A DNA stretch of 64,000 nt, taken from contig SVUK01000004.1 in assembly GCA_015063325.1 (NCBI GenBank), forward strand, positions 2,583 to 66,582, given 5' to 3'. The DNA is from Oscillospiraceae bacterium. Lineage in GTDB: Bacteria; Bacillota; Clostridia; Oscillospirales; CAG-272. The translations under genes and the position numbers were made by a program. The notes under the pieces are model-generated. The model did not search any database. It worked only from the letters and a program-made list of their open reading frames with translations, and was not told the DNA's origin. Numbering within the stretch: the stretch's first letter is position 1; each line of letters begins with the position of its first letter. This document shows positions 203-46,697 of the stretch, one piece after another.

Positions 203-325
203 ATGAAAAAAACTTATCAAACCCCGGCAATTCTTGTTTTTCCGGTTGATTGCGCAGACTTGCTGACTGCATCGACAGATAACGACACTAATTGGGATAA
301 TCGTTGGAATATTGACATTGTTTAA
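203..325 (+). CDS. 40-aa small peptide, YxxP...DLLTAS leader family (copy 1)
   Basis: RBS AAGGAAGG, ATG 203: MKKTYQTPAILVFPVDCADLLTASTDNDTNWDNRWNIDIV*; stop overlaps the RBS of the next gene; two similar ORFs elsewhere in the window. Confidence 0.8.
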   Translation: MKKTYQTPAILVFPVDCADLLTASTDNDTNWDNRWNIDIV

Positions 326-338
326 GGAGAAAGAGAAA

Positions 339-2096
339 ATGAAAAGAGTATTCAGCGTTTTATTGATTCTTGCAATGCTCCTCGGCACGCTCATCATTCC
401 TGTTTCTGCATTGGATCCGCAGGTTCCCGAAGTTCTCGGCGCCTCTATTCGCACCGAGGGCAACCAGGGACTTCGCTTCGTCGGCCGTATCAAAAAGACC
501 GGTTCCATTACTCTAACGCACGGCTCGGAGGCAAACTTCGGATTCCTGATTATTCCGGAATCCTCCACCGATGGCAGCGCCATCACCAAGGATACTGACC
601 ATGTCAGCCAAATTCCTGCCGCTTTGGAAATGGGACAGGGCAGTGTGGAAGCCGCAGGCTTAACCTACGATCCAAATTACTACTATTTCTGCGTAGTACA
701 AATCAATATCCCGGCAAACTTCTATGGCACCAACTTTGTTGCAAGAGCTTATATTAACAATGGCGGCTCCTACATTTATTCCGATAGCGGCGAAACGCGC
801 GCAAAACGCTCCATTCAGTATGTGGCGCAGACCATTGCCGGAATGGGCGGCGATATTCCGGCGTTCATTACCACGGTTTTGACCAAGTGTGCCGAAGAGG
901 GCTACGACGTTTATGTCAACGGCAACCGCTTCTTCCCGTCTTCAGGCAGCTATGCTTCCAGCACGCTGCAAAACACCTATGCTCGCCTGACCACCGCAAA
1001 GAAACTGAACGTGGCATACCTTGGCGGTTCTATCACAAAGGGCGTTGGCGCTTCCGATGCGAACACCACCTCTTGGCGCGCGCTGACCACCAGCTGGCTG
1101 AAAACCAATTTCCCAGATGCTGACATTACCGAAACCAACGCGGGTATCGGCGGCACCGGCTCGGTCTTTGGCTGCTACCGCGCCATTGACGACCTGAAAC
1201 TGGAGAACGATTCCAAGAAACCCGATTTGCTCTTCATCGACTTTGCCATCAACGATCAATACGACGGCATTACAGTGGCGGAAGTAAAGCAATATATGGA
1301 AACCATCGTCCGCACGGTCTACGAGTATTCGCCTTATTGCGACATCGTCTTCGTTTACACCACCGACCGCACTCGCCGTAATTATACCGATTCTTCCAAT
1401 TATCCCACGCTCGCGGCACAGCATGACGTTGCAACCAAGTACGGTCTGACAGAGATCTACGTTGGTAAACAGCTCTGCGAGGCAAAGAGCATTACCAGCA
1501 CATCTACTTGGGATAGCTCCAATTTGTTTGCCGACATTGTTCACCCGAACGATTCCGGCCACGCACTGTATGCCGGCTACGTCACCTCGGTCCTGAACAC
1601 AGAGCTGACCAAATCGCTCAACCCCTACGGCTATGTGGCTCATTCCATCCTTTCGGCTTCCTACAGCCCGCTGACGGCTCCGGCAAGATATTTCTTCAAC
1701 GCTTCTTCCGGCAAAACCACCGGCTTCACCCTGTATGAAGGAACGAACCTGGACGAAAAGGGCTATCTGAAACCCGAGCCCGGCGAGACCGGCGCACAGG
1801 TCAAGTTCACCTTCGTCGGCACGGGCTTGCAGCTTTGGACATACGCAAGAACGGTATCTTCTACCATCAGCGTAAACATTGACGGTTCTTCTAATAGCTA
1901 TACCATTCAGCGTAGCGGTTCGGACGGCAACAAGCCCTACCGCGTGGCTTCCGGACTTTCCAATACCACGCATACCGTCACCATTACGGTCACGGCAACC
2001 AGCTCCACCACGTCCAGCAACGTGCTTGACCTGATGGCACTGATGGTAGAGGGCGACCCGAACTTTACCGGTGTAACCTTTATCAATGTAAACTGA
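339..2096 (+). CDS. Secreted SGNH/GDSL hydrolase with an N-terminal uncharacterised domain and a C-terminal beta-sandwich
   Basis: Signal peptide (MKRVFSVLLILAMLLGTLIIPVSA); SGNH blocks YLGGSIT, NAGIGGTGS, DFAIND, DIVHPNDSGH; RBS AAGGAG supports ATG 339. Confidence 0.85.
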   Translation: MKRVFSVLLILAMLLGTLIIPVSALDPQVPEVLGASIRTEGNQGLRFVGRIKKTGSITLTHGSEANFGFLIIPESSTDGSAITKDTDHVSQIPAALEMGQGSVEAAGLTYDPNYYYFCVVQINIPANFYGTNFVARAYINNGGSYIYSDSGETRAKRSIQYVAQTIAGMGGDIPAFITTVLTKCAEEGYDVYVNGNRFFPSSGSYASSTLQNTYARLTTAKKLNVAYLGGSITKGVGASDANTTSWRALTTSWLKTNFPDADITETNAGIGGTGSVFGCYRAIDDLKLENDSKKPDLLFIDFAINDQYDGITVAEVKQYMETIVRTVYEYSPYCDIVFVYTTDRTRRNYTDSSNYPTLAAQHDVATKYGLTEIYVGKQLCEAKSITSTSTWDSSNLFADIVHPNDSGHALYAGYVTSVLNTELTKSLNPYGYVAHSILSASYSPLTAPARYFFNASSGKTTGFTLYEGTNLDEKGYLKPEPGETGAQVKFTFVGTGLQLWTYARTVSSTISVNIDGSSNSYTIQRSGSDGNKPYRVASGLSNTTHTVTITVTATSSTTSSNVLDLMALMVEGDPNFTGVTFINVN

Positions 2097-2124
2097 ACAA
2101 AAACAGAACAATAAAGTATAGATA

Positions 2125-2164
2125 AGCAAAACGGAGCCGGAAAATTCCAGCTCCGTTTTGCTTT
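2125..2164 (+). terminator. Intrinsic terminator
   Basis: AGCAAAACGGAGC...GCTCCGTTTTGCT stem followed by T residues. Confidence 0.7.
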
Positions 2165-2228
2165 AAAAATCGGACGGTTCAATGTAAACTTTTTTGTTCT
2201 TTTCCAGTTTTTTTCGACTGCTTTCATC

Positions 2229-2257
2229 TTGACTTTTCCAATTCCATGTGATAAAAT
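2229..2257 (+). promoter_or_regulatory. Sigma-A-type promoter
   Basis: TTGACT-17 bp-TAAAAT with an extended -10 TG. Confidence 0.6.
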
Positions 2258-2318
2258 AAAAATGAATAAGAATCGCTTCCGTTCGGGAGAAAAAATAAAC
2301 AAAGGCGGTAAAAATCAA

Positions 2319-5300
2319 ATGAAAACAAAGATTCGTGTTCTGATCAGTGTTTTGCTCGTGTCCGTTCTGCTGTTTTCAGCGCTTTCGGTTGTTGTGAATG
2401 CGCAAAAAGCGGAATCTCAAACCATTTTTGCGGACGAGCTGTTCGATCTTCTTTTTCAGGGGAAAATACCGCTGACCGACGAAGAGCGTGCCTATCTGCG
2501 CTCCGGCGAGACGCTTTCCGTAACCTATTCAATGGATGACGTAAACGAATCGGATGTTGTTATTGTTAATCCGGAGTATACGGGACTTTTGCAAATTACG
2601 GCAAAAGAGGTCAAAAAAACGCTCGAAAACGGAATAGAAGTAATTTGGACGCCTAAATCGGTTTGCGCAAACGGTGAAAGCGAGACCAATCTTGAAGAAA
2701 AAAATAACTACTACAGCTATACTTATGACAAGCAGTGGCATTCAGGAGATGTTACGGTTACCGTTCAATATACCATGAGCATTTTGGTTCCGGAAACGGT
2801 TCTTAATCGAATTTTGACGGCTGACATTGATGCGGTCGTTGCCAAGCGCGCGAAGATTATTAGCGATTTTAATCAGGCGAAAAACGACTACGATAAATAT
2901 CAAAACGATCTCTCGAATTATCAAACCGCGCATGCTCAATGGGTGATTGATAAGCAGGCGTATGACGATTATTTGACCCAAAAAGAAGCATACGACCAAA
3001 GTGTAGCCGATTACAATGACCTTGCCGCGCAATGGCAGACATACAACGACTATCAAACGGCTCTTGAAGAATACGGAACCAAGAGCCAGCAATATACGTC
3101 CTACAAAGCGACCATGGACAAGGTAGATGCCTGCCTTGCCATTATGGAGAGTATGTTTTCGGTTGCCGAGGAGGGCGAATATAGCTTTTATCAAAGTTTG
3201 GCCGGGAAATCGGACGACGCAATTCTAAACGATTTAACGGTGCTGACCCAATTTGGTGTAGTGAGTGCTGATATTGAAGATGCAAAAGAGGAAATTGATG
3301 CAATTAAAAGTATATTGAGTTCGTATCAAGAGAAGCTTAGCGCATCTTACGAGACAGATTTTGCAAAAAAAGAAACGTTGTTCCAAGAATATACAAACAG
3401 TTATAGCAATTTACGTAAAAGTTTTAAAAACCTTGATAACTATTTGAATGATATTTACGGAAAGGATGGAGTGCAGCAGGGGATCGAATCTGACTATTCG
3501 GATAGTGCTTTTCATTTTGCCCAATTTTTGACGCAACTTACAAATTATAAGGGACAGCTGGTGGCGGAACAAGCCGACCCGAATAAAATTACCTTCCCGG
3601 AATCCTATTTGGAGGAGCCAACTGCTCCAACGGTAGTCACCCAGCCGGAAGAACAGCTTCCCGAAACCAATCCGGCAGACGAGCCTGCGCCCACCGCTGT
3701 AAAAAATCCCGGTGCAGAACCCACAGAGCCGCCCTCGGTTGCCAATCCCGGCGAGTCTGTCGATTTTTCGCAGTTGAGCCCGGAGGAAACCGCATTGTTG
3801 GCAAAGTATGATGCCAACGAGCTTCCGGATCGGAGCGGCGAGAAAAAGAGCGAGCCGCAAACCCATCAGTTTGGTGAAACGGTAACAAAATCGATTGTTC
3901 AAACAGTAGAGTACAAAAATAAACGTACCGTTACTTTCCTGAATGAACGCGGTGACCAAAAAGGAGAAACGCTCGTTCTCGAATACGGGGAGGAAATTAC
4001 CGTAACGCCTCCGGAACTGCTCCAGTCGGATTTAAAATCCAACACCATTGCAAAAACATACGAATTTGACGGTTGGTGCCTTACCACAAACAAGAGCAAA
4101 CTATTTTCCTTTAAAACTCCAATTACCTCCAATATCAAACTTGCGCCCCACTATATTGAAACGTTAATCGAATATACAGTAACATGGGAAGTAGATGACA
4201 GAATTATCCGGCAAGAAAAAATTGCATACGGCGAATTGCCGCCGAAACCCCAAACACCGACAAGAAAAGATGATGGAACCGGAAACTTTATCTATTTGTT
4301 TGACGGTTGGTCTCCCGATGTCAAGGCGGTTGAAGGAGATGTAACTTATGTTGCAACATGGAGAGCTTCTCCGCGTACTTGCAAAATTACTTGGCAACTT
4401 TGGAAAGGGGAATCTAGCACCATTTCGGTAAACAATGGTGATATCCCCGTATATCAAAACGGTGCAACGCCGCAAAGACCCTCCGACGAAAACTACAGCT
4501 ATGAGTTTTTGCAATGGTCGCCAAAAATTGAAGCGGCAACAAAAGATATTATTTATACTGCCGTATGGAAGGCTACTTCCCTGAATCCACAGTCAGAAAC
4601 TTATACCATCACATGGGATTTCGATAACGGTGCAGACCCGGTTCAGGAACAGCTGGTAGCCGGAACGGTCCCGGAATACAGCGGAATTCCCACAAAACCG
4701 TCCAGCGCGCAATATAGCTATGAATTTGACGGTTGGACTCCGGAGCCTGTCGCGGTTACCGGCAATGCTACCTATAAAGCAAAATGGAAAACCACTTTAC
4801 GCGAATATACCATTACGTGGGATCTGGGATACGAAGGCGGCACGCCGAAAACAGAAACACTGAAATACGGCGATCCCTTGAACTATGGGGAAACGCCTAC
4901 CAGACCGGCGGAAGGGGATACCGTTTATACCTTTATCGGTTGGAATCCTGCGCCCGGCGCAACGGTAACGGGTGCCGCAACCTATACCGCGCAGTGGACG
5001 ACCAACGCAACGCTTTATACCATTACGTGGAACGTCGATGGAAAAGAGACCCACGTGCAATATTACGGCGGCGTGACCCCAATATACGACGGAACGCCTA
5101 CCAAAGAGCAGGACGCGCAATATACCTATGAATTTGACGGGTGGGATAAAGAGATTGTTCCGGCAGATGGTGACGTTACCTACACTGCTCAATGGAAAAC
5201 CACTTTGCGCGAATATACCATTACGTGGGTCGTAGACGGAAAGGAAACTACTGTACAGGTTGCTTACGGAAAGGATCCGAATTATCGGGGAACACCGACA

Positions 5301-6851
5301 AAGGCATCAACTGCATCCAACGTCTACGAATTTAACGGCTGGTCACCTGCGCTCGCTAAGGTCGAGGGCGATGCCACATATACCGCTCAGTGGACAAAAA
5401 CGCCGCGCGAATATACTATTACATGGGACCTTGACAATGGAACCGAACCGATTACAAGTCAGGTCGCCTATGGCAAAATCCCCACATTTCCTGAAGAATT
5501 TCCGCTTGTCAAAGCACCGGATGAACAATACAGCTATGAATTTGATAAGTGGGAACCCGAGCTGAAGGCGGTGACCAGAAACGAGACTTATACCGCCAAA
5601 TGGAAGACGGGGCCGCGGAGCTTTGAGATCACATGGAATCTTGGCTATGGAGAACCGGCAACGAGTACGGCAGAGGTTATGAGCGGTGAAACGCCCGTTC
5701 CGCCCGAAGGCGCAACCGCGCGCCCGGACGACGAACACTATCGCTATACTTTCGTCGGCTGGTCGCCCGAAATCGCTCCTGCAAATGCCGCTGTCACCTA
5801 CACGGCAGTATGGGAAAAAGTGCCGCTGGTAACGGATGTGGAGGGAAATACGTACCCCACGCAAATTGATGGCGAAACGGTCGTCGTAGATGCGGCGCAA
5901 AGTCAACTTGGCTTGAAAAACGTTATTGATTTTGCCGCCGAAGAAAACAAAACCATAACGATAAAGCGTGAAAACACCGAGTTTATTTTGCAGGCAAAGA
6001 TGTTCAAAGAACAGTTGCCCGGTGTGAATGGCATCCGTTGGGTTGAAGATACCGAGAACGGCGGTTTCCGCGTGGAATTGATCAATTCTGATGGAAACGC
6101 AATGGAAACTAAACTGACCTATCAGGTTACAATTCCCACCGTTGACGATAACCGGAAACTGAGCATTTATGAGCTTGACGGCGAAGGGATGACCGAGATT
6201 AAATATTACATAATGGAGTCTATCCCCAACCGTTTGACCTACACGGCGCAGGTCGGCAAAACGGTCGTTTGCAAAATTCGGTATAAACTGGTGATTGAGG
6301 GAACTTATTTCTCCAACCTTCCTGATTTTGCGGAACCCGGAGAGACAATCTCTCTTGCCGCGGTGAGGTGCGAGACCGGCTTTGAGGTTATCGGTGCAAC
6401 GCTGATCCACGAGGATGGAACTGAAGAAAAAATCGGAACCTCCTTTACCATGCCTGCCGAATTCGTAACGGTCAGATTGCAGGTCAATCCCATTCAATAC
6501 CATATCGTTTTCAAGTGCAACGATCAGGTGATTTCCGATAAATCCTATGACTACGGCGAAAATATTGAAGTTCCTGCCGATCCCACTTTGCCGGATGAGG
6601 AAGGGTACAAGTTTGAGTTTGTCGGTTGGATTCCCCAGGTCAGCCAGACCGTGGCAGGTGATGCTCGCGAACAGGTCTATGAGGCGAAGTTTGTCAAAGT
6701 TCCCAACGCGCCGCAGGTGGAAGAAAAAACCGGATTCATTGATTCTCCTGCGTTTGCAGTTCTGATTATGGCATTGATCGTCGGCGCTGTGACTGCCGTT
6801 GCTGTCGTTGCAGTTGTTGTTCGGATGAAGAAAAAATCTGATGATAACTAA
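2319..6851 (+). CDS. Large membrane-anchored surface protein: coiled coil, Pro-rich segment and multiple InlB B-repeat/Listeria-Bacteroides-type repeats
   Basis: Signal peptide; roughly 9-10 repeats of about 70 aa (YTITW...PTK...YEFDGW.P...V.GDATYTAQW); C-terminal TM helix followed by RMKKK. Confidence 0.85.
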   Translation: MKTKIRVLISVLLVSVLLFSALSVVVNAQKAESQTIFADELFDLLFQGKIPLTDEERAYLRSGETLSVTYSMDDVNESDVVIVNPEYTGLLQITAKEVKKTLENGIEVIWTPKSVCANGESETNLEEKNNYYSYTYDKQWHSGDVTVTVQYTMSILVPETVLNRILTADIDAVVAKRAKIISDFNQAKNDYDKYQNDLSNYQTAHAQWVIDKQAYDDYLTQKEAYDQSVADYNDLAAQWQTYNDYQTALEEYGTKSQQYTSYKATMDKVDACLAIMESMFSVAEEGEYSFYQSLAGKSDDAILNDLTVLTQFGVVSADIEDAKEEIDAIKSILSSYQEKLSASYETDFAKKETLFQEYTNSYSNLRKSFKNLDNYLNDIYGKDGVQQGIESDYSDSAFHFAQFLTQLTNYKGQLVAEQADPNKITFPESYLEEPTAPTVVTQPEEQLPETNPADEPAPTAVKNPGAEPTEPPSVANPGESVDFSQLSPEETALLAKYDANELPDRSGEKKSEPQTHQFGETVTKSIVQTVEYKNKRTVTFLNERGDQKGETLVLEYGEEITVTPPELLQSDLKSNTIAKTYEFDGWCLTTNKSKLFSFKTPITSNIKLAPHYIETLIEYTVTWEVDDRIIRQEKIAYGELPPKPQTPTRKDDGTGNFIYLFDGWSPDVKAVEGDVTYVATWRASPRTCKITWQLWKGESSTISVNNGDIPVYQNGATPQRPSDENYSYEFLQWSPKIEAATKDIIYTAVWKATSLNPQSETYTITWDFDNGADPVQEQLVAGTVPEYSGIPTKPSSAQYSYEFDGWTPEPVAVTGNATYKAKWKTTLREYTITWDLGYEGGTPKTETLKYGDPLNYGETPTRPAEGDTVYTFIGWNPAPGATVTGAATYTAQWTTNATLYTITWNVDGKETHVQYYGGVTPIYDGTPTKEQDAQYTYEFDGWDKEIVPADGDVTYTAQWKTTLREYTITWVVDGKETTVQVAYGKDPNYRGTPTKASTASNVYEFNGWSPALAKVEGDATYTAQWTKTPREYTITWDLDNGTEPITSQVAYGKIPTFPEEFPLVKAPDEQYSYEFDKWEPELKAVTRNETYTAKWKTGPRSFEITWNLGYGEPATSTAEVMSGETPVPPEGATARPDDEHYRYTFVGWSPEIAPANAAVTYTAVWEKVPLVTDVEGNTYPTQIDGETVVVDAAQSQLGLKNVIDFAAEENKTITIKRENTEFILQAKMFKEQLPGVNGIRWVEDTENGGFRVELINSDGNAMETKLTYQVTIPTVDDNRKLSIYELDGEGMTEIKYYIMESIPNRLTYTAQVGKTVVCKIRYKLVIEGTYFSNLPDFAEPGETISLAAVRCETGFEVIGATLIHEDGTEEKIGTSFTMPAEFVTVRLQVNPIQYHIVFKCNDQVISDKSYDYGENIEVPADPTLPDEEGYKFEFVGWIPQVSQTVAGDAREQVYEAKFVKVPNAPQVEEKTGFIDSPAFAVLIMALIVGAVTAVAVVAVVVRMKKKSDDN

Positions 6852-8446: not shown

Positions 8447-9766
8447 TTATGCTTTTACAAATTCTTTGTAAATGGCGTTGGTTGCGCCTTCCAGATCGGC
8501 TTCCTCAACGCCGACGATGATGTTGAGCTCGCTCGATCCCTGGTCGATCATGCGAATATTGATGCCGGCGTTGGAGATCGCGTCGCAAACGCGCGCGGCG
8601 GTACCTTTGGATTTGACCATTCCGCGACCCACAACGGCAAGCAGGGCAAGACCGTCCTCAATGACGATGCTGTCCGGGCGGACCATGCGGTTGATCGAGG
8701 TGAGCAGACGTTCGCGGTAGGGGTCGATCGAAGCGGTGGAAACCACAACGCTCATGGTGTCAACGCCCGAGGGCAGGTGCTCAAAGGAAATTTCGTATTC
8801 CTCCAAAACCTCCAAAACGCGGCGTCCAAAGCCGATTTCGGCGTTCATCATATCCTTTTCAATGGTAATAACCGAGAGCCCCTTCTTTCCGGCAATTCCG
8901 GTAATCACCGTGTCGGCGTCGTAGTCGTTGGTCGCCGCAACGATCATGGTGCCGGGCTCCTCCGGGGCGTTGGTGTTGCGAATGTTGATCGGAATACCGG
9001 CGTAGCGCACCGGGAAGATCGCGTCCTCGTGCAAAACGGTGGCGCCCATATAGGAAAGCTCGCGCAGTTCGCGGTAGGTCACAGTACGAATCGGGCGCGG
9101 ATTATTCACAATGCGCGGATCCGCCATCAAACAGCCGGAAACGTCCGTCCAGTTCTCATAAAGCGTTGCTTCCGCCGCGCGTGCAACGATCGATCCTGTA
9201 ATATCCGATCCGCCGCGGCTGAAAGTTTTAATAGTGCCGTTGGGCATCACGCCGTAAAAGCCGGGAATCACCGCGTAGGGGTGATTGGCAAGCTCCTCGC
9301 GCAAAAGCGTGTTGGTTTTATCCTCGTCAAAGGTTCCGTTTTCGCGGAAGCAGACGACCGATTCGGCGTCAATAAAGGAAAAGCCGAGGAATTTTGCAAG
9401 AATCAGCGAATTAAGGTATTCTCCGCGAGAGGCGGCAAAATCGCGCCCCGAATGGTGCAGAATCGCGTTTTTAATATACTCCAGCTCACCGGTAATGTCA
9501 TATTGTAAATTGAGGTCGCGAATGATGCTGTTGTAGCGCTCGGCAATTTCGGCAAAGCATTCGGAAATATCCTCGCGGTTGTGAGCCAATTCGTAGCAGC
9601 GGTAAAGCAAATCGGTCACCTTTGTGTCGGCGGAAAAACGCTTTCCGGGCGCGGAGGCAACAACATAGCGGCGTTCGGGATCTGCTTTGACAATCTCGGC
9701 AACGCGGCGGAAGTGTTCGGCGTCGGCAAGCGAGGAGCCGCCGAATTTGACTACTTTGATTTTCAT
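8447..9766 (-). CDS. Aspartate kinase with two ACT domains
   Basis: VVKFGGSS, TFSRGGSDITG, WTDVSG..ADPR motifs; C-terminal ACT domains. Confidence 0.93.
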   Translation of the reverse strand: MKIKVVKFGGSSLADAEHFRRVAEIVKADPERRYVVASAPGKRFSADTKVTDLLYRCYELAHNREDISECFAEIAERYNSIIRDLNLQYDITGELEYIKNAILHHSGRDFAASRGEYLNSLILAKFLGFSFIDAESVVCFRENGTFDEDKTNTLLREELANHPYAVIPGFYGVMPNGTIKTFSRGGSDITGSIVARAAEATLYENWTDVSGCLMADPRIVNNPRPIRTVTYRELRELSYMGATVLHEDAIFPVRYAGIPINIRNTNAPEEPGTMIVAATNDYDADTVITGIAGKKGLSVITIEKDMMNAEIGFGRRVLEVLEEYEISFEHLPSGVDTMSVVVSTASIDPYRERLLTSINRMVRPDSIVIEDGLALLAVVGRGMVKSKGTAARVCDAISNAGINIRMIDQGSSELNIIVGVEEADLEGATNAIYKEFVKA

Positions 9767-9987
9767 ACTGTCCAAAGTCCTTTCGGGAAATCAAAATCAA
9801 TACTTATTATATTATATGGACAATTTTGGGCTTTGTCAAGAAGAAACGCAAAAAAAGGGCAAATCAAACGAAGGTGGAATCGGAAATTTCAGGAAATGTC
9901 GTCGTTTTGCTTGAAAAAAGGACGATTTTCGCGTATAATGAAAAAGACAGGGGAAAACCCGGTCGAAGAAAGGCGATTTTCAATGTT

Positions 9988-11436
9988 ATGAAACAGCAAA
10001 CACACGACCGCGCAAGCGGTATTTTGATGCATATTTCCTCCCTTTGGAGCGGCTATTCCGAGGGATCGTTCGGCGAATCCGTGCGCGAGTGGATCGATTT
10101 TCTTTCTGCAAGCGGTTTTCGCATTTGGCAGGTGCTTCCGTTCTGCCTGCCCGACGACTGTAATTCCCCCTACAAATCCACCGGCGCTTTTAGCCTGAAT
10201 CCCAATTTTATCGACCTGCCTACGCTGTACGAACAGGGATTGCTTTTCAAAGAGGAACTTGACGCGGCGAGGGAGAAAACGCCGTACATCTGCGAATTTG
10301 AACGGCTGCGTAAGGAGCGGTTTGCGCTGTTACATACCGTTTCGCGCCGCGTAACCGACCGAAAACCAATCGAGGACTTTTTGAAAACACATCCGCAAAC
10401 GGCTGAATTTTGCCGCTTTATGGCGATCAAAACGGCGAACGGATTTCGCGCGTGGAATGATTGGACGACCGATGCATATGACCCGGAAATCCTGTTTGCA
10501 TGGCAATTTTCACAGTACGAGGCATACCGACAGTGGATGCAGGTGCGCGCCTATGCGAAGGAAAAGGGCGTTGAGATCATCGGCGACGTTCCCATCTACG
10601 TTGCGGAGGACAGCGCCGACGTTTGGGCAAACCGAAAGCTGTTCTTGCTGGACAAAGACGGCAAACCTTCTTTGGTTGCCGGCGTTCCGCCCGACTATTT
10701 CAGCGCCGACGGACAGCTTTGGGGCAATCCGCTCTACGATTGGAAGGCAATGAAAGCCGACGGCTACCGCTGGTGGCAGGAGCGCATGAAATTTCAGCTG
10801 GAATTGTTTGACGGCGTCCGCATCGACCATTTTCGCGGACTGGAATCCTACTATGCCATTGCGGCGGAAGAGAAGACGGCGCGGAACGGCAAATGGAAAA
10901 AGGGACCCGGCATGGAGCTTATCCGCGCATTACAGCCAATCTGCAAAGGGAAACGAATGATTGCCGAAGATTTGGGTATTATCACCGACGAGGTGCGCGC
11001 ACTGGTGGAAAAGAGCGGTTTTCCGGGAATGCGCGTGCTGCAATTCGCTTTTTTGGGCGACCAAAACTCGCCCCACCTGCCGCACAACTATCCGGCAAAC
11101 TGCGCGGCATATACCGGAACGCACGACAACAACACCCTTCTCGGGTACATCTGGGAGCTTGATCCGTCAACGCGCGCGCGCGTTCTGCAGTATTTCGGAT
11201 ACGATGGCGACGATTGGGACCATTGCTACCCCAAAATCCTGCAAAGTATGCTTGCAAGCCATGCCGGAACGGTCATTTTTCCGGTGCAGGACCTGCTCCT
11301 TTACGGGAGCGATACTCGGCTGAACACCCCGGGCAAAGCCGAAGGAAACTGGGCATACCGCCTGACCCACGACCAACTTTTCGCCGTCGACACCGAAAAA
11401 TTCCACCGCTGGAATATTCTTTATGGAAGGGAGTAA
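9988..11436 (+). CDS. malQ: 4-alpha-glucanotransferase (GH77)
   Basis: GILMHISSL, GVPPDYFSADGQLWGNPLY, RIDHFRG, IAEDLG, YTGTHDN. Confidence 0.95.
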   Translation: MKQQTHDRASGILMHISSLWSGYSEGSFGESVREWIDFLSASGFRIWQVLPFCLPDDCNSPYKSTGAFSLNPNFIDLPTLYEQGLLFKEELDAAREKTPYICEFERLRKERFALLHTVSRRVTDRKPIEDFLKTHPQTAEFCRFMAIKTANGFRAWNDWTTDAYDPEILFAWQFSQYEAYRQWMQVRAYAKEKGVEIIGDVPIYVAEDSADVWANRKLFLLDKDGKPSLVAGVPPDYFSADGQLWGNPLYDWKAMKADGYRWWQERMKFQLELFDGVRIDHFRGLESYYAIAAEEKTARNGKWKKGPGMELIRALQPICKGKRMIAEDLGIITDEVRALVEKSGFPGMRVLQFAFLGDQNSPHLPHNYPANCAAYTGTHDNNTLLGYIWELDPSTRARVLQYFGYDGDDWDHCYPKILQSMLASHAGTVIFPVQDLLLYGSDTRLNTPGKAEGNWAYRLTHDQLFAVDTEKFHRWNILYGRE

Positions 11437-11577
11437 AAGCCCCCTGTGTTGGGATTATTTTCCCAAAATCTATTTACAAACCCGAAATTCCATGATAAAA
11501 TAAATACGGCGCTTGAGAGAGTCTTCCTCTCCGCCTTACCATGTCAATCTTATCATGAAAAAAGGAGAAAGAGAATC

Positions 11578-35200: not shown

Positions 35201-38200
35201 GTCACTTATACGAAGGTAGGGGCGATTGATCCCACTCCTACTGCGACGGGCAACATCGAGTACTACATCGGTCCTGACGGCAGATACTACGTCAGAGACG
35301 GTGCAAGATACGTGAGGATCGCGGAGAACTCCTGGATCATTCCCAAAGTCGTTCTGACCAAGTACGAAACGACACCGGCGACCGAAAACGCTGCCGGCAA
35401 CACCGAGTATTACGCCGGCGACAACGGCAAGTATTACGTCAAGAACGGCGACGATTACGATGAGATCACGTATAACTCGTGGATTATTCCCGCCCTCGAC
35501 GGCAGTACGTTCGAAACCATTGTGATACACACCGAATGGGATCCAAAAACCCTTTTCAGCGGAGAAAACGCCGACGTATCCTGCGACATACCCACCTTTA
35601 ATGAAATCTGCGTTGACGGCCAAGAAAACAGAAACTTGTACATTAACGCGAAATACGGCAAGACGTTTTATAAGGTCGTATTCCATATCTCAAGTTTGGA
35701 AGGAAACTCCGTTTACGCAAAGACCGACAAGGGTGCGATAGAGGTTTCCGATGACGGACGGACCGTCACGGTATGGAACTTCAGCTCCGACAGTCTCATG
35801 CTTTCCAACAAGATGGCCTTCTACGTAAATTCCGTTGACGTGTATTATACCGGCAGACCGGTCACGATCCTGACCTATTTAGATGAGAGTTTCGTTTTCA
35901 ACGGCTCCAACGATTACTACGGCGATCTTGCGTCCGCCCACGCCGACCTGTGCTATTCCGACGGCGCTTATGTCAGAACGTATGAAACCGGTGAAGAATC
36001 AAGTAAGATAACCGTCACCGGAAAGAACGGACAGGAACTCTACAAAGTAGTCTTCCACGTCAGTTATAACACGGAAAGAAGCTGGTGGGCGAAGGTCGAT
36101 CACGGCAACATCTCCGTATCCGATGACGGCACGACGATCACCGTGACGGACATCGGCGCAAACTCCGTCACGCTTTCGACGAATTTCTGTGACGAAGATC
36201 ATTTGTGGGACAGAGAAGAATGGGAGGAAGACATTCCCTGGGATACCTACTTCCAGGTAAGCTCTGTCGACATTTACTGCTGGGTAAACGAAGCAGAGAG
36301 AGTTACCTATTTGAAAGTTCCCGCAACGGCTCCTACCTTCACCTCGGCGGGCAACACCGAGTACTACGTCGGCTCGAACGGCAAATACTATGTCAAGGAC
36401 GGCGGAGACTACACCGAGATCGCCGAAAATTCGTGGATCATCCCCGTCATCACCCTTGAAAAGGTCGAGGCGAAAGCCGCCACCGTTGACGAGGCGGGCA
36501 ACACCGAGTATTATATCGGCTCGGACGGCAAGTATTACGTCAAGAACGGAAACGATTATACCGAGGTAGCAAAGAATTCCTGGGTCATTCCCAAGATCAC
36601 TTCCTATACGGTAACCTGGAAAAACTACAACGGCACCACTCTTGAAACCGATGTAAAACAGGTAACCGGCGCCAATCCGTCCTATGACGGTGCAACGCCT
36701 ACCAAACCCGCAGATGCGGACTACGTTTATACCTTCTCGGGCTGGACTCCCGCGGTCGTTCCCGTATCGGGCAACGCGACCTATACGGCTGTCTTCACCG
36801 CTTCCCCGAAACCCGACGTTGAGTTTTCCGGCAGAGTCTTTGACGACGGTGTACTCGAAGCAGATCAGCTCTCGCTCGGCGACGTCATCTCCCGCGGTAT
36901 CTACTTCTTTAATTGCAACGGTAAAACCATCGTTCTCAAGGGCGGCAGATACGGCACAAGAAATGGTGATGTATTCACGGTAGTATCCGCCAACAGTGCC
37001 GGATACACCGATCTGGGTATTACATTCAATGAATTCTGTGAACTGTATGACTATGACGGCGGTAGCCTTTTCTTCCCTGCTAAACAGAGCGGCGAGCTCG
37101 CCGATGCCGTGCTCGTTATGGCAATAGACGGCAACACGATCACCCTCGGCGGTTGTGAGCTTCCGGAGGGTTACGTTCACATCACATACGAGAGAGTTTG
37201 GGAAGAATTGCCCACCGAAACCCAACCGGGTATCCGTGAACACTACATCGGCTCCGACGGCAAGTATTATATTATGGAAAACGGCGAATATGTCGAGGTC
37301 GATTACGACTCCCTGATCATTCCGCCTACAGGCGGCGGCTCCGACCAGCCCGGCGGAGAAGGATCACAGGACGGACTCACAGCTTCTCAGATGACCGCCG
37401 ATATGATCGAGAATATGCATGATGTCTCCGATATGCCCGGCAACTTTGTTCAGGTCGATTTGGATACTGCAAGGTCATGGACCGGCGCGCCGCAGAACGG
37501 TTGGGCGCATCTGATTTACGCAACCGAAAATGGTGACCTGAAAGAGGTTGGATTCGAAAACGGAATGGTAATGGGCGACGGTATGCTCAGAATATCGGAT
37601 TTGTCGATGTTCCTTAATTGGGGCGAAGCGGTTTATTACGTTACCGGCGCAGGTTCCGGCTCCGGCGGACAGGGCTCACAGGGCGGTCTTACGGTTGTTC
37701 AGATGACCGCTGATATGGCTGAAAATGTTCATTTTGCCTATGATATGCCCGGCAACTTTGTTCAGGTCGATCTGGACACTGCAAGGTCATGGACCGGCGC
37801 GCCGCAGAACGGTAGGGCTTATTTGGTCTATGGAGTTGAAAATGAAGATCTGCTGAAAGCAGTCGTGTTTAATTGGGGAGAGTTTAACGACGATAGAACT
37901 TTCTTCGCACAAGAATTACGAGATTTCATCAATTGTGGTGAGAGCGTCTATTATGTCACCGGCTCAGGCTCACAGGGCGGCTCAGGTCAACAGGGGGGCA
38001 ATCTTGCGGTTTCTCAGATGACCGCAGATATGGCAATGAGTATCAATTCCGTCAACGATATGCCCGGCAACTTCGTTCAGGTCGATTTGGACACTGCAAG
38101 ATCATGGACCAGCGCGCCGCAGAACGGCAGATCATATCTGATCTATGGTGTTGAAAATGAAGAACGTCTGAAAGCTATTGTTTTCTTTGAGGGACGCTTT

Positions 38201-40393
38201 GAAGACGAAAGAGGATTCTTTGCAGATGAATTCAGAATGTTCATCGACTGGGGCGAGAGCGTCTATTATGTCACCGGTTCCGGCTCACAGGGCGGCGGTA
38301 ATGAACCTCAGATCACCTACACCAGAGTCGACTACAAGGCGCCTACCCCCAACGAAACCGGTAACCAAGAGTACTACATCGGTTCGGACGGAAACTATTA
38401 CGAGAAATACAACGATGAATATTATCAGAATCCGATCGACTACTTCGTTATCCCCAAGGTTTCCGTAACACGCCGCGCGGCGGTTGTGGCTACTCCCAAC
38501 GCAGCCGGCAACATCGAGTACTACACCGGTAATGACGGTAAGTATTATGTGAAGAACGGCAACATCTACGAAGAGGTTTCTTCTGCTTCCGTTACCATCG
38601 CAAAGGTTAGTGTCACCCGCCATGAGGCAGTCGCCGCTACCTACACCTCGGAGGGCAATACCGAATACTACATTGGCGCTGACGGCAAGTACTATGTAAA
38701 GAACGGCAACAACTATACCGAAACAACGCTTGAGGCTGTTACCATTGCAAGACTTACGCTTGTTCATCATAATGCGGTCGCCGCTTCCTGCACGGCAAAC
38801 GGCAATACCGAGTACTGGCATGACGAAGCGAACGACAAGTACTTCTCAGACGCAAATGGAGAACATGAGATTTCGCTTGCAGAAACGGTTGTACCCGCAG
38901 GCGGACATTCCTTTGGCGAATGGGTTGTGACCAAAGAGGCGCAAGTGGGCGTGAAGGGCGAAGAAACACGCACCTGCTCTGTTTGCGGCAAGACTGAAAC
39001 GAGAGAGATCGCAGCTCTGCCCTATGTACCGGTTACAAATGAAGACGGTGACAAAGTGTACGCCGAAACCGTGACAGAAGAAGTCAAAGATGTAACCGTA
39101 CTCTTTGCACAAGCCAAAGCGGAGGAAGGCACGGTCGAAGTTCAATCGAACGATTTTGCAATCGTATTTGACAGCGCTGCGGTCAGTGCGATCGGCGACG
39201 CCAATGTGACGCTTTCGGCAAAGGTAGTCACCGAAGACCTGCCGGAGAATGTACCGGAAAATGCTGAACTCGTACTGGAAGTCACACTCACGGGCGCAAC
39301 GTTCGAAGGCGGTCAGGCAAAGGTAACCATTCCGTTTGAAAAGGAAGCTCCCGCGGGTAAAGTTGCCAAGGTTTATTATATTGATGATGACGGCAACAAA
39401 ACCGATATGAACGCAACGTTTGAAAACGGCAAGGTAACTTTTGTAACCAACCACTTCTCCACCTATGTGTTGGTGTTTGAAGAGGCTGAGGCTGATGAAG
39501 ATACCCTGAAATTCTACGGCGCATCACTCACCCTGCAGAACAATCTGAAAGTGAACTTCTTTGTGGAAAAAGATTTGATCGATGGAAACGGATATGAAAA
39601 TCCCTACGTCCTCTTTAACATGAACGGCAACGAGATCACCGTTTCGGATTATACTGTCAGCGGAGACTATTATGTATTCAGCTTCAGCAACATTGCTCCC
39701 GACAAGATGAACGATACCATCACCGCTGCGCTTCACGCCACTCGTGACAGCATTGAATATGTCAGCGACGAACTGGAATACAGCATCGCGCAATATTGCT
39801 ATTCCATGCTGAGCAAAGAGACAACAAGTGATGCGTTGCGCACCTTGCTTGTAGATCTTCTTCATTATGGCGCGGCATCTCAGCTTTATACCGACTATAA
39901 TACGGATGCATTGGTTGACGCTTCTTTGACTGCGGAACAACTCGCGTGGGGCACGGCGGCAGATCCGGATATGACGTCGGTGACAAATGCTCGCTATCAC
40001 GAGATCGATAATCCGTCGGTATCATGGAGCGGTGTGTCACTGAACCTGAATGATTCAATCACCATGCAGTTCGTTTTCGCCGTGGAAAGCACCGAAGGAG
40101 TAACGGTTAAGGTTACAAACGGAAACGATGCTCTTTTGAAAGAAATTTCAGAGGAGGAACTTGTAGCTGCCGGCGGATACTATGTTGCAAAGTTCAAAGG
40201 GCTTACTGCCGGACAGATGAGCGATACCGTTTACGTCACGGCGTATCGTGGAGAGGAAGCGATCAGCAACACGGTGGCGTACAGCATTGAATCTTACGCC
40301 TGCGCAAAGCAAAATGACGCGAATGCTGTTCTCGCAAACCTGGTCAAAGCCATGATGAAATACGGAAATTCGGCATTTGTCTACGCGCAATGA
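32213..40393 (+). CDS. Giant (2726 aa) secreted multi-repeat surface protein with two C-terminal copies of the shared unnamed domain
   Basis: RBS AGGAGG; signal peptide ending AAKA; about 11 GN(T/I)EYY.G.DGKYYVKNG repeats; three ~100-aa QMTADM..DMPGNFVQVDLDTARSW repeats; one InlB-type repeat; CxxC segments. Confidence 0.9.
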   Translation: MITTKRRLLRGLIAVIMIISMFAIVHIMPMAAKADGDVPVPGGRVIVWSGETLLNTFSMRDGETHKLTGSDSANGITVNYLGGQLLSDSGFYANYESSTNSNTKIIRLNNSDSELTFTSASDNSFITKIVIEFDKYFTISGATSDTTIDHIVVNHGAWTNEDVIGSNGKHTLTLEGNAARSVTIRKNSDTYHYGIRGITSIRFYITENLYTIPTLESGFYVYDQEDGGVKIVHGNPARPLAGSPFIVRSGGKIAGFSQADADDTTSYTIENPTAAFTFELDDGSDTITVDNIDDFMLALGLARYRSIYLSADLTFDGGFTITRTVSIDLKGKSLTCDSSATDKTIRVTGGNPTVTSTGYYWYDIVNSDISGFDKIEVTGGSLTIKGGRYDLPEGFSGNVRLSGGLYKLNDAVDMNKLADSAVNHLPVEIDGTWAGLKFHVHDYNTIFETLSDGGIHYINRCDGCDHTVKEWTLTNEEINTLIGLNGGAFTPVTNWNPNSPGSVTLYLRITEDTYNTAIAAPYNMNADALKMLRDNGILGNWETHGAWTNYSTENGGYHSDDVDITFDDDGYRYVGVDEPMTVTSKNGKNIYRAVIHIDEYYKERTNQTYVNRGNAIISDDALTITVTNINSKSFTFNFSGASYEFVPVESVELCYAGSGQNISYVTVNTTPDADNCYGHTMTYDYRDHTYTLHFTSTNPHHHLQGEPDWNLTDDGVNATMTATTHCTVCGEELHLNVESYSSGTREATYTRERTKLWHFLAQTDQYYYYDYLQVIGPKLPVTTHSIEDGNGNILEYYEDESTGKYFIDLDGPAIALDQIRIPETKIDAVPAADEADGNIEYYTCSNGRYFKLEDGKYIEIARNAWVSHIGESEEIDLTMHRGTMVFTGQNVKVTADMIWDWYSSYKGVTLFGSAAHVTGLNGKKIKAIEVTRSKDASYASHIYINVGGEYDHDYTLIGDSGDVFMYGNLSASEVAVYGDFNNITSVKVWYYDDSMIVTYTKVGAIDPTPTATGNIEYYIGPDGRYYVRDGARYVRIAENSWIIPKVVLTKYETTPATENAAGNTEYYAGDNGKYYVKNGDDYDEITYNSWIIPALDGSTFETIVIHTEWDPKTLFSGENADVSCDIPTFNEICVDGQENRNLYINAKYGKTFYKVVFHISSLEGNSVYAKTDKGAIEVSDDGRTVTVWNFSSDSLMLSNKMAFYVNSVDVYYTGRPVTILTYLDESFVFNGSNDYYGDLASAHADLCYSDGAYVRTYETGEESSKITVTGKNGQELYKVVFHVSYNTERSWWAKVDHGNISVSDDGTTITVTDIGANSVTLSTNFCDEDHLWDREEWEEDIPWDTYFQVSSVDIYCWVNEAERVTYLKVPATAPTFTSAGNTEYYVGSNGKYYVKDGGDYTEIAENSWIIPVITLEKVEAKAATVDEAGNTEYYIGSDGKYYVKNGNDYTEVAKNSWVIPKITSYTVTWKNYNGTTLETDVKQVTGANPSYDGATPTKPADADYVYTFSGWTPAVVPVSGNATYTAVFTASPKPDVEFSGRVFDDGVLEADQLSLGDVISRGIYFFNCNGKTIVLKGGRYGTRNGDVFTVVSANSAGYTDLGITFNEFCELYDYDGGSLFFPAKQSGELADAVLVMAIDGNTITLGGCELPEGYVHITYERVWEELPTETQPGIREHYIGSDGKYYIMENGEYVEVDYDSLIIPPTGGGSDQPGGEGSQDGLTASQMTADMIENMHDVSDMPGNFVQVDLDTARSWTGAPQNGWAHLIYATENGDLKEVGFENGMVMGDGMLRISDLSMFLNWGEAVYYVTGAGSGSGGQGSQGGLTVVQMTADMAENVHFAYDMPGNFVQVDLDTARSWTGAPQNGRAYLVYGVENEDLLKAVVFNWGEFNDDRTFFAQELRDFINCGESVYYVTGSGSQGGSGQQGGNLAVSQMTADMAMSINSVNDMPGNFVQVDLDTARSWTSAPQNGRSYLIYGVENEERLKAIVFFEGRFEDERGFFADEFRMFIDWGESVYYVTGSGSQGGGNEPQITYTRVDYKAPTPNETGNQEYYIGSDGNYYEKYNDEYYQNPIDYFVIPKVSVTRRAAVVATPNAAGNIEYYTGNDGKYYVKNGNIYEEVSSASVTIAKVSVTRHEAVAATYTSEGNTEYYIGADGKYYVKNGNNYTETTLEAVTIARLTLVHHNAVAASCTANGNTEYWHDEANDKYFSDANGEHEISLAETVVPAGGHSFGEWVVTKEAQVGVKGEETRTCSVCGKTETREIAALPYVPVTNEDGDKVYAETVTEEVKDVTVLFAQAKAEEGTVEVQSNDFAIVFDSAAVSAIGDANVTLSAKVVTEDLPENVPENAELVLEVTLTGATFEGGQAKVTIPFEKEAPAGKVAKVYYIDDDGNKTDMNATFENGKVTFVTNHFSTYVLVFEEAEADEDTLKFYGASLTLQNNLKVNFFVEKDLIDGNGYENPYVLFNMNGNEITVSDYTVSGDYYVFSFSNIAPDKMNDTITAALHATRDSIEYVSDELEYSIAQYCYSMLSKETTSDALRTLLVDLLHYGAASQLYTDYNTDALVDASLTAEQLAWGTAADPDMTSVTNARYHEIDNPSVSWSGVSLNLNDSITMQFVFAVESTEGVTVKVTNGNDALLKEISEEELVAAGGYYVAKFKGLTAGQMSDTVYVTAYRGEEAISNTVAYSIESYACAKQNDANAVLANLVKAMMKYGNSAFVYAQ
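37380..38300 (+). repeat. Three intragenic tandem repeats of about 310 bp
   Basis: CAGATGACCGC.GATATG...GATATGCCCGGCAACTT.GTTCAGGTCGAT.TGGA.ACTGCAAG.TCATGGACC recurs at about 37388, 37700 and 38015. Confidence 0.9.
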
Positions 40394-40407: not shown

Positions 40408-40554
40408 ATGAATAAAGAAAAGCAAAAGTTTATAGAACCTAAGATCGAGATCATTCGAATCAGAACGGAAGATATTATAACTACAAGTTCCGGAACAAAT
40501 CAGAATGATGACTCGGGTATCAACCTTCCCATTGATCCGTTTATTATAACATGA
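40408..40554 (+). CDS. 48-aa small peptide, FxxP...DIITTS leader family (copy 2)
   Basis: RBS AAAGGA, ATG 40408: MNKEKQKFIEPKIEIIRIRTEDIITTSSGTNQNDDSGINLPIDPFIIT*; ATGA overlap with the next gene. Confidence 0.8.
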   Translation: MNKEKQKFIEPKIEIIRIRTEDIITTSSGTNQNDDSGINLPIDPFIIT

Positions 40555-40808
40555 AGAAAACAATAGTCTTTATTCTCCTGTTCGTCATATTGCTTTTATC
40601 GGCAGTCGGCTGCACGGATCCCAAGAAGGATCCGTCTGCCGAAACGCAACCGACGAACAGCACAGAAACAAATTCAACCGATCAAACAGACTCAACAATG
40701 GCGCCGGAGACCTCGTCTTCTTCCGGCACTCAAACTACGCCGAGCACAGATCCACCGTTTGTCACAGGTAATGACGGCGTTGATTTGCCCGTTGACTCGT
40801 TTGATTAA
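40551..40808 (+). CDS. Small lipoprotein: lipobox, Ser/Thr-rich linker and a short C-terminal motif
   Basis: MKKTIVFILLFVILLLSAVG-C; tail GNDGVDLPVDSFD. Confidence 0.85.
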   Translation: MKKTIVFILLFVILLLSAVGCTDPKKDPSAETQPTNSTETNSTDQTDSTMAPETSSSSGTQTTPSTDPPFVTGNDGVDLPVDSFD

Positions 40809-40814
40809 GCATTA

Positions 40815-40854: not shown

Positions 40855-40915
40855 CTCTCTGCAGTGAAACTGCCCTCACTCGAAAGTGGGGGCAGGATTC
40901 TTGATATGGGGTTTG

Positions 40916-43997: not shown

Positions 43998-44108
43998 GAG
44001 AAAAAGAGAAAAAGAGAAATAGAGAAATAGAGAAATTAAAAAAAGAAAAACAGAGAAATAGAAAAGGTAAAATAAAGAACAAATAGAACAAATAGAAGAG
44101 AGAAAAAA

Positions 44109-44768: not shown

Positions 44769-44784
44769 AATACGTCCTCCCGGA

Positions 44785-45885: not shown

Positions 45886-45938
45886 TTTCAAAAAATCCTT
45901 TCAAACGGCAAAAGCCGGTATTTTGGTGCGTTGTCTGT

Positions 45939-45967
45939 ATTATAGCGCGTTTTTCCCTGTTTGTCAA
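45939..45967 (-). promoter_or_regulatory. recA promoter
   Basis: Minus strand TTGACA-17 bp-TATAAT. Confidence 0.85.
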
Positions 45968-46087
45968 TAGGTTTTTAAAATATTTGTTTCCAAAAGTGGA
46001 ATATTATTTTTGACTAACCGATTTTAAATATTGTTAAATATTTTTATAATTCCAAAACAGGAACGAACAGCCGAGGAACAATTCGTC

Positions 46088-46202
46088 CGCCGCGCCGGGC
46101 GGTGACGGTGCCCGTCACCGCAAACAAAAAAGGAGCAAAACGCAAAAATTGCGTTTTGCTCTTTTTTAACTCCGCAAACGTTCCGTTTGCGGCGGCGCGG
46201 CG
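46088..46202. repeat. Four-way-junction (cloverleaf) palindromic element, copy 1
   Basis: 10-bp closing stem enclosing three hairpins of 10, at least 13, and 9 bp, all with 3-nt loops. Confidence 0.75.
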
Positions 46203-46208
46203 CGGCAG

Positions 46209-46451
46209 TTATCGAATTTCCTGATCCAGCGTGCGGAAGGTGTCTGTGTTAAAAAAATCGAAGATGGAAATGCCCATCCCGTCGCAAAGCATTTTGATCG
46301 TTACAATTCCCGGGTTGGTGCTTTTTCCGTAGAGAATATTTTTGATGGTAGAGGGAGGCACGGCGGATTCGGTTGCGAGTTTGTGAATGGACAGATGATA
46401 TTCTCCGCAGAGTGCCAGCAAGCGGTTTTTGACAGCCGAGCAGGTATCCAT
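46209..46451 (-). CDS. XRE-family HTH transcriptional regulator
   Basis: SIHKLATESAVPPSTIKNILYGKSTNPGIVTIKMLCDGMGISIFDFF. Confidence 0.9.
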   Translation of the reverse strand: MDTCSAVKNRLLALCGEYHLSIHKLATESAVPPSTIKNILYGKSTNPGIVTIKMLCDGMGISIFDFFNTDTFRTLDQEIR

Positions 46452-46503
46452 AGTAAAGAAACCCCTTTTTCAAAAGATTCAGGATAATTATATCCAAAAA
46501 GCC

Positions 46504-46532
46504 TTGACAAAGTGGGCTATATATGATACAAT
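46504..46532 (+). promoter_or_regulatory. Sigma-A promoter of the peptide/DUF6273 operon
   Basis: TTGACA-17 bp-TACAAT with an extended TG; GGCTATAWAT occurs in the spacer and again just downstream (candidate XRE operators). Confidence 0.7.
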
Positions 46533-46577
46533 ATAGGCTATAAATAGACCATTTCAAAAAAAGGAAAGGAGAAAAGG

Positions 46578-46697
46578 ATGAAAAAACTCTATCAACCGCC
46601 GGAAATTCTGAAAATTTCAATTGATTTACAGGATATTCTGACCACCTCGCCGGGGAGCAGTGAACTTGACCCGGACATGAAGATTTCAAAGCCCTAA
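46578..46697 (+). CDS. 39-aa small peptide, YxxP...DILTTS leader family (copy 3)
   Basis: RBS AAGGAG, ATG 46578: MKKLYQPPEILKISIDLQDILTTSPGSSELDPDMKISKP*; first ORF after the promoter. Confidence 0.8.
   Translation: MKKLYQPPEILKISIDLQDILTTSPGSSELDPDMKISKP

Follow-up and report, generated by a model that had tools for sequence, protein, structure and literature searches.

Among described systems, the lasso-peptide clusters of Firmicutes are the closest to the one reported here. As set out in parts of two papers (PMC8498205, PMC7533575), these clusters carry homologues of the HPr kinase together with nucleotidyltransferases, and their enzymes phosphorylate and then glycosylate a C-terminal Ser. 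The lasso leaders in the portion of PMC7533575 drawn on here (MKKDWTIPTLEVLDINMTMA and similar) resemble the leaders of a family of small peptides, three of which are encoded in a 64,000-nucleotide stretch of an Oscillospiraceae bacterium genome. This stretch, hereafter the window, spans positions 2583-66582 of contig C18; the genome, G000, comprises 1.68 Mb in 24 contigs and is 95.6% complete. The three open reading frames (ORFs) are probably genuine precursor-peptide genes, substrates of a maturation pathway widespread in Clostridia that includes a kinase, a recognition element (RRE) for peptides that are made by the ribosome and modified after translation (RiPPs), an S26-type peptidase, an ATP-binding cassette (ABC) exporter and a nucleotidyltransferase. 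Many of the precursor genes lie directly beside the coding sequence of an uncharacterised domain, ~300 residues long, that secreted proteins carry.

An initial annotation of the window had placed three small ORFs sharing one leader at positions 203-325, 40408-40554 and 46578-46697. All three lie on the forward strand. Translation and alignment reproduced the coordinates and the translations exactly, and the spacing (Y/F)xxPxI-x8-D(I/L)(I/L)T(A/T)S was the same across all three ORFs, with M1, P8, I10, D19, T22 and S24 invariant in their alignment. The first peptide, P0001 (203-325, 40 aa), reads MKKTYQTPAILVFPVDCADLLTAS followed by TDNDTNWDNRWNIDIV and has a WDxxWN-type acidic tail; it matched the family profile at E 1.3e-22 and was matched again by two further profile searches. 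P0002 (40408-40554, 48 aa) scored E 3.1e-18, and P0003 (46578-46697, 39 aa, core SPGSSELDPDMK) scored E 1.3e-22. Purine-rich ribosome-binding sites lie 7-14 nt upstream of each start, and none of the three peptides contains a hydrophobic signal-like stretch; the annotated ribosome-binding sites and the annotated lack of a Sec signal thus both stood. P0003 is the first ORF after a promoter-like site at 46504-46532 on the same strand (sigma-70-like, 11/12 consensus matches, extended -10 with TG). P0002 starts 14 nt past the stop of a 2726-aa ORF, and its own stop overlaps the start (ATGA) of an 85-aa lipoprotein-like gene (40551-40808, forward strand) with weak lipoprotein-type N-terminal matches in NCBIfam, after which a terminator-like hairpin is found at 40870-40895. 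The start of P0002 is ambiguous because an earlier ATG, at 40390, overlaps the stop of the upstream 2726-aa ORF; P0042, a public homologue of P0002, starts there.

The size of the family was determined by a motif scan and by a profile built from the regular-expression hits, over the 44,277 stop-to-stop frames of G000. The profile search returned seven ORFs at E 1e-18 to 1e-22 and five more at 4e-10 to 0.016, and the same 12 genes were recovered by three independent profile searches; three of them fall inside the window and the others are scattered. A profile scan, of the kind that the initial annotation had proposed, yielded 1062 cluster representatives at E<=1e-3 when public data were searched exhaustively. 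Nearly all of the 150 public matches listed are 32-60 aa long and start at the same M-K-K. Named contigs with family members stem from gut and rumen and belong to Lachnospiraceae, Oscillospiraceae, Acutalibacteraceae, Ruminococcus, Roseburia, Coprococcus, Flavonifractor and others. Isolates with family peptide genes include Coprococcus ammoniilyticus and Clostridium sp. AM49-4BH, and in Flavonifractor sp. An82 the enzyme cluster adjoins the peptide as well. A word-indexed protein search found 49 relatives, all unnamed, and neither Pfam nor NCBIfam has a model for the peptides; the sole hints were a 13-residue match to the lasso-precursor model NF033528 lasso_cyano (E 0.016, below cut-off) and an unrelated match at 0.066. 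The ORFs had been described as unannotated, which is accurate in that the family has no name and no model, and inaccurate in that gene callers do call such ORFs in public data.

Coding status was assessed from paralogues. In 11 paralogue pairs of G000, the proportion of synonymous differences (pS) was 0.41-0.98 as compared with 0.04-0.24 for nonsynonymous differences (pN), and the P0003 paralogues on contigs C13, C14 and C17 had a pS far above pN. Since pS greatly exceeds pN, the reading frame is under selection at the protein level, that is, it is coding. The peptide family is under purifying selection.

The leader consensus comprises 24 residues, MKKxYxxPxhEhhxhxxxDhhTxS (h, hydrophobic), and is followed by a short, variable, strongly acidic and Cys-poor tail. 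In a logo of 293 anchored sequences, Y was present in 95%, P in 87%, D in 100%, T in 96% and S in 100%, where the anchoring pattern permitted D/E and S/G at two of those positions; in the same sequences a hydrophobic residue lies two after P, and T lies two residues before the invariant S. The tails, or cores, have a median length of 16 aa, with some just 7-9 residues long; D and E make up 24% of their residues and K and R 3.8%, Cys occurs in 12/293, and a C-terminal Ser in 21/293. D, G, E, N and P are abundant in them, and motifs such as NELEPDh, WDxxWN and LPxhP mark subfamilies. The core motif NELEPDI is present twice in some precursors (among P0030, P0051, P0056, P0058 and P0099), one 97-aa protein consists of two consecutive family units, and several loci (among L048, L053, L086, L099 and L111) have two peptide genes in tandem. 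One 2809-aa protein, P0055, matches profile positions 17-25 in 36 separate stretches and is probably an unrelated repeat protein.

Processing in trans by an RRE of the PqqD type had been proposed in the initial annotation, and the evidence supports it. The single PqqD-family match in the whole of G000 lies on contig C17, flanked by a 152-aa S26-type peptidase and a 240-266-aa HprK-like kinase, and homologues of this trio are found directly 3' of family peptides in other Clostridia. In G000 itself the trio stands alone, on a contig other than the window's, and the 12 precursor genes are dispersed. The RRE scored 67.4 bits against Pfam PqqD (cut-off 23.4). Its profile matched TbiB1 best in the PDB (6.3e-8), followed by TfuB1 and two other lasso B1 chaperones; in NCBIfam too it was closest to lasso B1, below cut-off (34 vs 70 bits). 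In the peptidase, GxSMxP, H-R and GDN are invariant in 12/12 homologues (residues G21, S23, M24, P26, H63, R64, G77 and D78). Its best NCBIfam match was the archaeal/ER-type signal peptidase TIGR02228 (25.5 bits, cut-off 51.85), and its predicted fold matches SpsB, SipA (4n31), LexA and SEC11A. No membrane segment was found in any of the 12 homologues, whose maximum 19-residue hydropathy is 0.54-1.33. The kinase has a Walker A motif, SGxGKSTH, conserved in 14/14. A sequence search of the PDB gave no match for it; its predicted model (pLDDT 91.6) has PEPCK and HprK/P as best fold matches, and Foldseek retrieved HprK/P 1jb1 and 1kkl (E ~3e-6, TMt 0.5-0.58) alongside PEPCK. A Radical_SAM_N/DUF3362 gene (locus L014, 5271-7475, on C17) lies convergent to the trio peptidase gene; a radical-SAM route was rejected, as this is the only radical SAM gene near the trio and it is absent from the clusters of other genomes. 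On contig C23 (locus L119), a stand-alone NTP_transf_5 gene (5225-6385) neighbours the gene for homoserine dehydrogenase, and two paired ABC half-transporter genes (9019-13000) follow 3-8 kb downstream; the NTP_transf_5 and ABC genes may be unlinked pathway members.

In other genomes the peptide and the enzymes are found together. Homologues of the kinase were near the peptide in 14/71 loci fetched with the peptide profile, as well as in a relative from the same genus (L031). The usual order starts with the peptide, followed in places by a small protein of lipoprotein or membrane type and then by kinase, PqqD, peptidase, ABC exporter and NTP_transf_5 nucleotidyltransferase, and in most clusters the kinase is the first gene after the peptide. 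The ABC proteins examined, 5/5, carry just the ABC_membrane and ABC_tran domains. Among 24 other genomes of the genus, 17 had both peptide and kinase, one the peptide only, none the kinase only and six neither. A sample of 300 Clostridia genomes (completeness >=90%; peptide at E<=1e-3, kinase as a full-length match) gave 39 with both, one with the peptide only, 15 with the kinase only and 245 with neither, so that 54/300 had the kinase and 40/300 detectable peptides. The peptide-positive genomes of the sample are spread over 28 genera, and in 12 of the 39 genomes having both, a peptide is encoded on the kinase's strand, no more than 2 kb upstream of it. In an order-level check, the peptide was detected in 0/5 kinase-negative genomes and in 2/5 genomes with a kinase-like match. 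A second HprK-like protein family is widespread among other Clostridia families without the peptides (in genomes G047, G054 and G082, for example); its ORFs of ~285-335 aa match kinase profile positions ~70-235 only, at E 1e-42 to 1e-57. At locus L048 (5695-7926), two PqqD genes flank the ABC exporter gene in one cluster. A recurrent hydrophobic protein of 143-150 aa with no Pfam family follows peptides whose cores are long (ADIF...TEIEV...ATDF...QPFSIF); it is found at L052 (8210-8659, there between peptide and kinase) and at L056, L078-L080 and L104.

The peptide genes were also said to occur beside large secreted proteins, and this link proved to be real and more specific than first described. 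Large proteins whose genes end right ahead of a peptide gene, those of canonical clusters as well as the 2726-aa protein of the window, have a C-terminal domain in common, ~300 residues in length. In the 2726-aa protein (32213-40393, forward strand; signal-like N-terminus, no Pfam family) this partner domain is encoded at 39509-40390 and is homologous to the C-termini upstream of peptides in L057, L065, L076, L107, L058, L087 and L074. The first half of the domain forms the N-terminal domain of the proteins just 3' of P0003-type peptides. In the window it lies at 46832-47317 on the forward strand (C18:49414-49899; profile positions 17-167, E 1e-19), within a secreted DUF6273 protein (46733-48529, forward strand; Pfam DUF6273 1.8e-21, signal peptide visible). 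No relatives of the domain were found in Pfam, in the PDB or among named proteins in the Atlas. Of 118 unique peptide genes, 14 of which lack upstream sequence, 36 have a domain-bearing ORF ending <=200 nt upstream, and seven are followed by an ORF that starts with the domain. All seven ORFs bearing the domain in G000 abut a peptide gene, and in the class sample the domain occurs in 10/300 genomes, all ten among the 39 with both peptide and kinase.

More generally, the proteins 3' of the G000 peptides are diverse secreted proteins and include a GDSL/CE2 esterase, DUF6273, cohesin/dockerin, BspA-type leucine-rich repeat, transglutaminase and Flg_new proteins. By a crude hydropathy rule, 9/12 downstream genes in G000 look secreted against a background of 344/1397 (24.6%; p 3.5e-4), an enrichment on which none of our conclusions rest; over all loci, in a list that includes fragments and duplicates, 51/111 downstream ORFs look secreted. 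In the window, the secreted esterase directly 3' of P0001 (339-2096, forward strand) matches Pfam Lipase_GDSL_2 at 3.4e-16 as well as CE2_N and has a signal-like N-terminus. The large neighbours of all three peptides, which the initial annotation had called secreted, have signal-like N-termini, but for P0002 the large protein lies upstream and a small lipoprotein downstream. Profile-profile comparison of the partner domain gave nothing with the N-terminus of the esterase (probability 0.3%) or with the C-terminus of the 899-aa protein upstream of P0001 (1.3%).

Within the described lasso systems, the likeness is greatest to clusters of the paeninodin/pseudomycoidin type, with which the family shares the MKK start, the aromatic-xx-P-x-hydrophobic motif and a Thr that closely precedes the core (PMC7533575, in the part consulted). 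The lasso leader feature, YxxPxL with Thr next to the cleavage site, is thus present in the family, as is an RRE of the PqqD (B1) type, and the HprK-like kinase, nucleotidyltransferase and ABC exporter genes are shared with the paeninodin/pseudomycoidin-type clusters. Unlike lasso clusters, the present set has no cyclase and no transglutaminase-like B2 protease, and has a soluble S26-type peptidase instead. The family leader is also ~4 residues longer, and to our knowledge the invariant D and S do not occur in lasso leaders. Further differences are that the peptides have neither a conserved ring acceptor nor a conserved C-terminal Ser, and that a genome holds many scattered precursors.

Other known systems resemble parts of the set. 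The arrangement general to RRE-dependent RiPPs, a precursor adjoining its RRE and its tailoring or processing genes, is found in other genomes and not in G000 itself. The peptidase has the catalytic Ser motif, the general base and the GDN box of S26 signal peptidase I, and in 12/12 homologues it lacks the membrane anchor that places the active site outside the cell. With the dedicated S26 peptidases SipW (TasA/TapA) and pilus-associated SipA, it shares the fold, a Ser/His-type motif and a gene beside those of its substrates; SipW is a His-type enzyme that acts on TasA. The present peptidase differs from these in having no membrane anchor and in being paired with an RRE, and its substrate lacks a hydrophobic signal core. 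With the double-glycine systems, which use peptidase-containing ABC transporters, the set has in common small peptides that carry a leader and no Sec signal, and an ABC exporter in the cluster; export of this type was rejected, as the leader ends in T-x-S without GG and the C39 domain is absent from 5/5 ABC proteins. The kinase has the P-loop of HprK/P-type enzymes and, in its predicted model, the HprK/PEPCK fold. In NCBIfam, an HprK-like P-loop protein is encoded beside a PqqD-family protein in the cassettes of TIGR04352 (HprK_rel_A) and TIGR04249 (ScmC), which have other partners. The kinase matches these two models weakly (E 1.3e-4 and 1.9e-4), and at 21 bits it falls short of their cut-offs, 200 and 125 bits, and so belongs to neither.

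We read the pathway as a lasso-related, cyclase-less variant of RRE-guided peptide maturation. The enzyme set would be lasso-derived, since Firmicutes lasso clusters carry HPr-kinase homologues and nucleotidyltransferases and have similar leaders. The soluble S26-type enzyme is likely the leader peptidase, with cyclase and B2 absent. As we picture the process, the RRE would bind the YxxP leader as an added beta strand, and the peptidase would remove the leader in the cytoplasm at the invariant T-x-S. The cut could fall on either side of S: after it, as the -3/-1 rule of signal peptidases would have it, or before it, in the lasso register, with T at -2 and S as the first core residue. Kinase and nucleotidyltransferase may decorate Ser or Thr, by phosphorylation or by nucleotidyl- or glycosyl-transfer, the invariant S or T of the motif being the candidate acceptors. 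The ABC transporter would then export a short anionic peptide, which may act together with the surface-protein domain. We infer that peptide and partner domain act jointly outside the cell. More tentatively, and as a possibility that we hold open rather than favour, the exported acidic peptides might be cognate partners (ligand, docking tag or maturation factor) of the new ~300-residue domain on giant surface proteins. On this reading, a peptide gene would travel together with the DNA for its domain, whether at the 3' end of the gene upstream or at the 5' end of the gene downstream, and a single shared RRE-kinase-S26-ABC machine would therefore serve many diversifying pairs on the surface of gut Clostridia. 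In full-text literature searches, which covered neither subscription journals nor supplements (including the tables of PMC7533575), neither the motif nor the cluster was found described, nor was the pairing of an S26-type leader peptidase with a PqqD RRE, and a term search of two RRE-mining papers met no mention of kinase, nucleotidyltransferase or signal peptidase.

Several observations weigh against a maturation pathway of this kind. The C-terminal Ser that lasso-cluster kinases target, according to a part of PMC8498205, ends just 21/293 cores. The co-occurrence counts ignore shared ancestry, and full-length kinase matches were classed by eye. No peptide was detected at E<=1e-3 in 15 of the 54 kinase genomes, for which the low power of a 42-position profile may be the cause, and one peptide genome has merely a shorter kinase-like match. 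In G000, neither the NTP_transf_5 gene nor the ABC genes adjoin the trio, and their assignment to the pathway, at 25-29% identity, is weak; the PqqD, peptidase and kinase proteins all fall under the curated cut-offs of every specific NCBIfam model. On the side of the partner domain, enrichment of which beside the peptides had been proposed as a check, all seven G000 domain bearers adjoin a peptide gene, and 61/118 peptide genes have no detected domain adjacent. P0001 is among these 61, and no pathway enzyme is encoded near it either. The excess of secreted neighbours seen in G000 is inflated because cassettes of a peptide and the start of the next gene are duplicated: on C13, C14, C17 and C18, the peptide and ~600 nt of the following gene are 72-75% identical.

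Could the peptides be ordinary lasso precursors, with the cyclase and the B2 protease encoded elsewhere? The leader resembles that of lasso precursors (YxxPxh, and a T that precedes the putative core by two or three residues) and has the weak lasso_cyano match at E 0.016, the RRE is nearest to lasso B1, and the kinase, nucleotidyltransferase and ABC genes accompany Firmicutes lasso clusters (parts of PMC7533575 and PMC8498205). Neither of the two enzymes was found. For B2 (PF13471), G000 gave one match of 19.8 bits, below the 26-bit cut-off and in a 782-aa ORF elsewhere, and 0/5 cluster-bearing genomes had a match. The sole strong Asn_synthase match in G000 carries glutamine amidotransferase (GATase) domains and lies beside CTP synthase and glutamine synthetase; it is a housekeeping-type AsnB. 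The Asn_synthase matches of the five cluster genomes are near-full-length and strong (E 1e-85 to 1e-94 in 4/5), none of them within +/-8 kb of the clusters, and ABC transporters are the only cyclase-sized ORFs in 15 cluster loci. Nor do the cores follow the lasso pattern of a small residue 1 with Asp or Glu at positions 7-9. D or E does occur at positions 7-9 in 212/293 cores, a point in favour of lasso precursors, yet this 72% is far from invariant when 56% is expected from composition, and some cores are only 7-9 residues in length. Strict lasso membership, which the leader and the NF033528 match had suggested, was rejected for want of a cyclase, of B2 and of a conserved ring acceptor, and we give a lasso system with its enzymes elsewhere a very slim chance.

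A different account, which we consider unlikely, grants cleavage and export and holds that the peptides are otherwise unmodified, pheromone-like ligands, the kinase and nucleotidyltransferase acting elsewhere or on the leader only. It fits Cys-poor cores with subfamily-specific motifs (NELEPDh, WDxxWN, LPxhP), the lack of a conserved C-terminal Ser such as lasso kinases use and the G000 nucleotidyltransferase being unlinked to the trio. However, the kinase is the most tightly linked gene, first after the peptide in most clusters and co-occurring 39 to 1, and such linkage is typical of an enzyme that acts on the peptide. The same linkage and co-occurrence with the enzyme set speak against cis-acting upstream ORFs, that is, leader peptides that would regulate the secreted-protein genes next to them and have no connection with the PqqD cluster. 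Their position at the 5' end of secreted-protein operons (for example, behind the promoter at 46504-46532) and the signal-like products of 9/12 downstream genes in G000, against the 24.6% background, would suit such a role, but conservation is at the amino-acid rather than the RNA level and extends over many families of Clostridia, and P0002 and at least 36 others follow a large gene instead of preceding one; we consider this role quite improbable. As for chance ORFs or mis-called fragments, the ORFs are indeed short and the window holds 788 ORFs >=25 aa. In-genome profile E-values down to 1e-22, 1062 public representatives with start, length and motif alike among those listed, and clear purifying selection have already refuted this explanation, to which we assign virtually no probability.

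The remainder of the window is ordinary chromosome, with genes for 4-alpha-glucanotransferase, an MFS transporter, a MetH-like protein, a MutS-domain protein, SecA, GerA, an alanine symporter, DUF711 and RecA. The family peptides are confined to islands of surface-protein genes, in keeping with the earlier remark that they do not lie beside housekeeping genes. A second DUF6273 protein (48533-49486, forward strand; Pfam DUF6273 2e-22) is encoded in the same gene string as the first, and ~620 nt of the first gene (47532-48154) are 75% identical to the start of the second (tandem pair, 46733-49486). On contig C16 of G000 (locus L123, 2887-3419), a paralogue of the 5' part of the 339-2096 esterase gene is 72% identical in nucleotides and has no detected family peptide upstream. 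A 465-aa ORF of the window (24784-26181), which lies between the SecA and GerA regions, has no Pfam family at E<=1e-5.

If the three ORFs are substrates of the proposed maturation pathway, a large unnamed peptide family of gut and rumen Clostridia would be the substrate set of an undescribed branch of RRE-guided maturation. This branch would keep the lasso leader and the B1 logic, swap the protease for a soluble signal-peptidase-like enzyme and drop the cyclase. What could prove new in kind is the coupling of peptide and domain. So tight a genetic link to a new surface-protein domain hints that peptide and protein are partners at the cell surface, and among RiPPs we know of no precedent for that. 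The branch would widen the known pairings of RRE and leader peptidase, offer a new signature for genome mining and contribute a class of short anionic peptides from abundant commensals.

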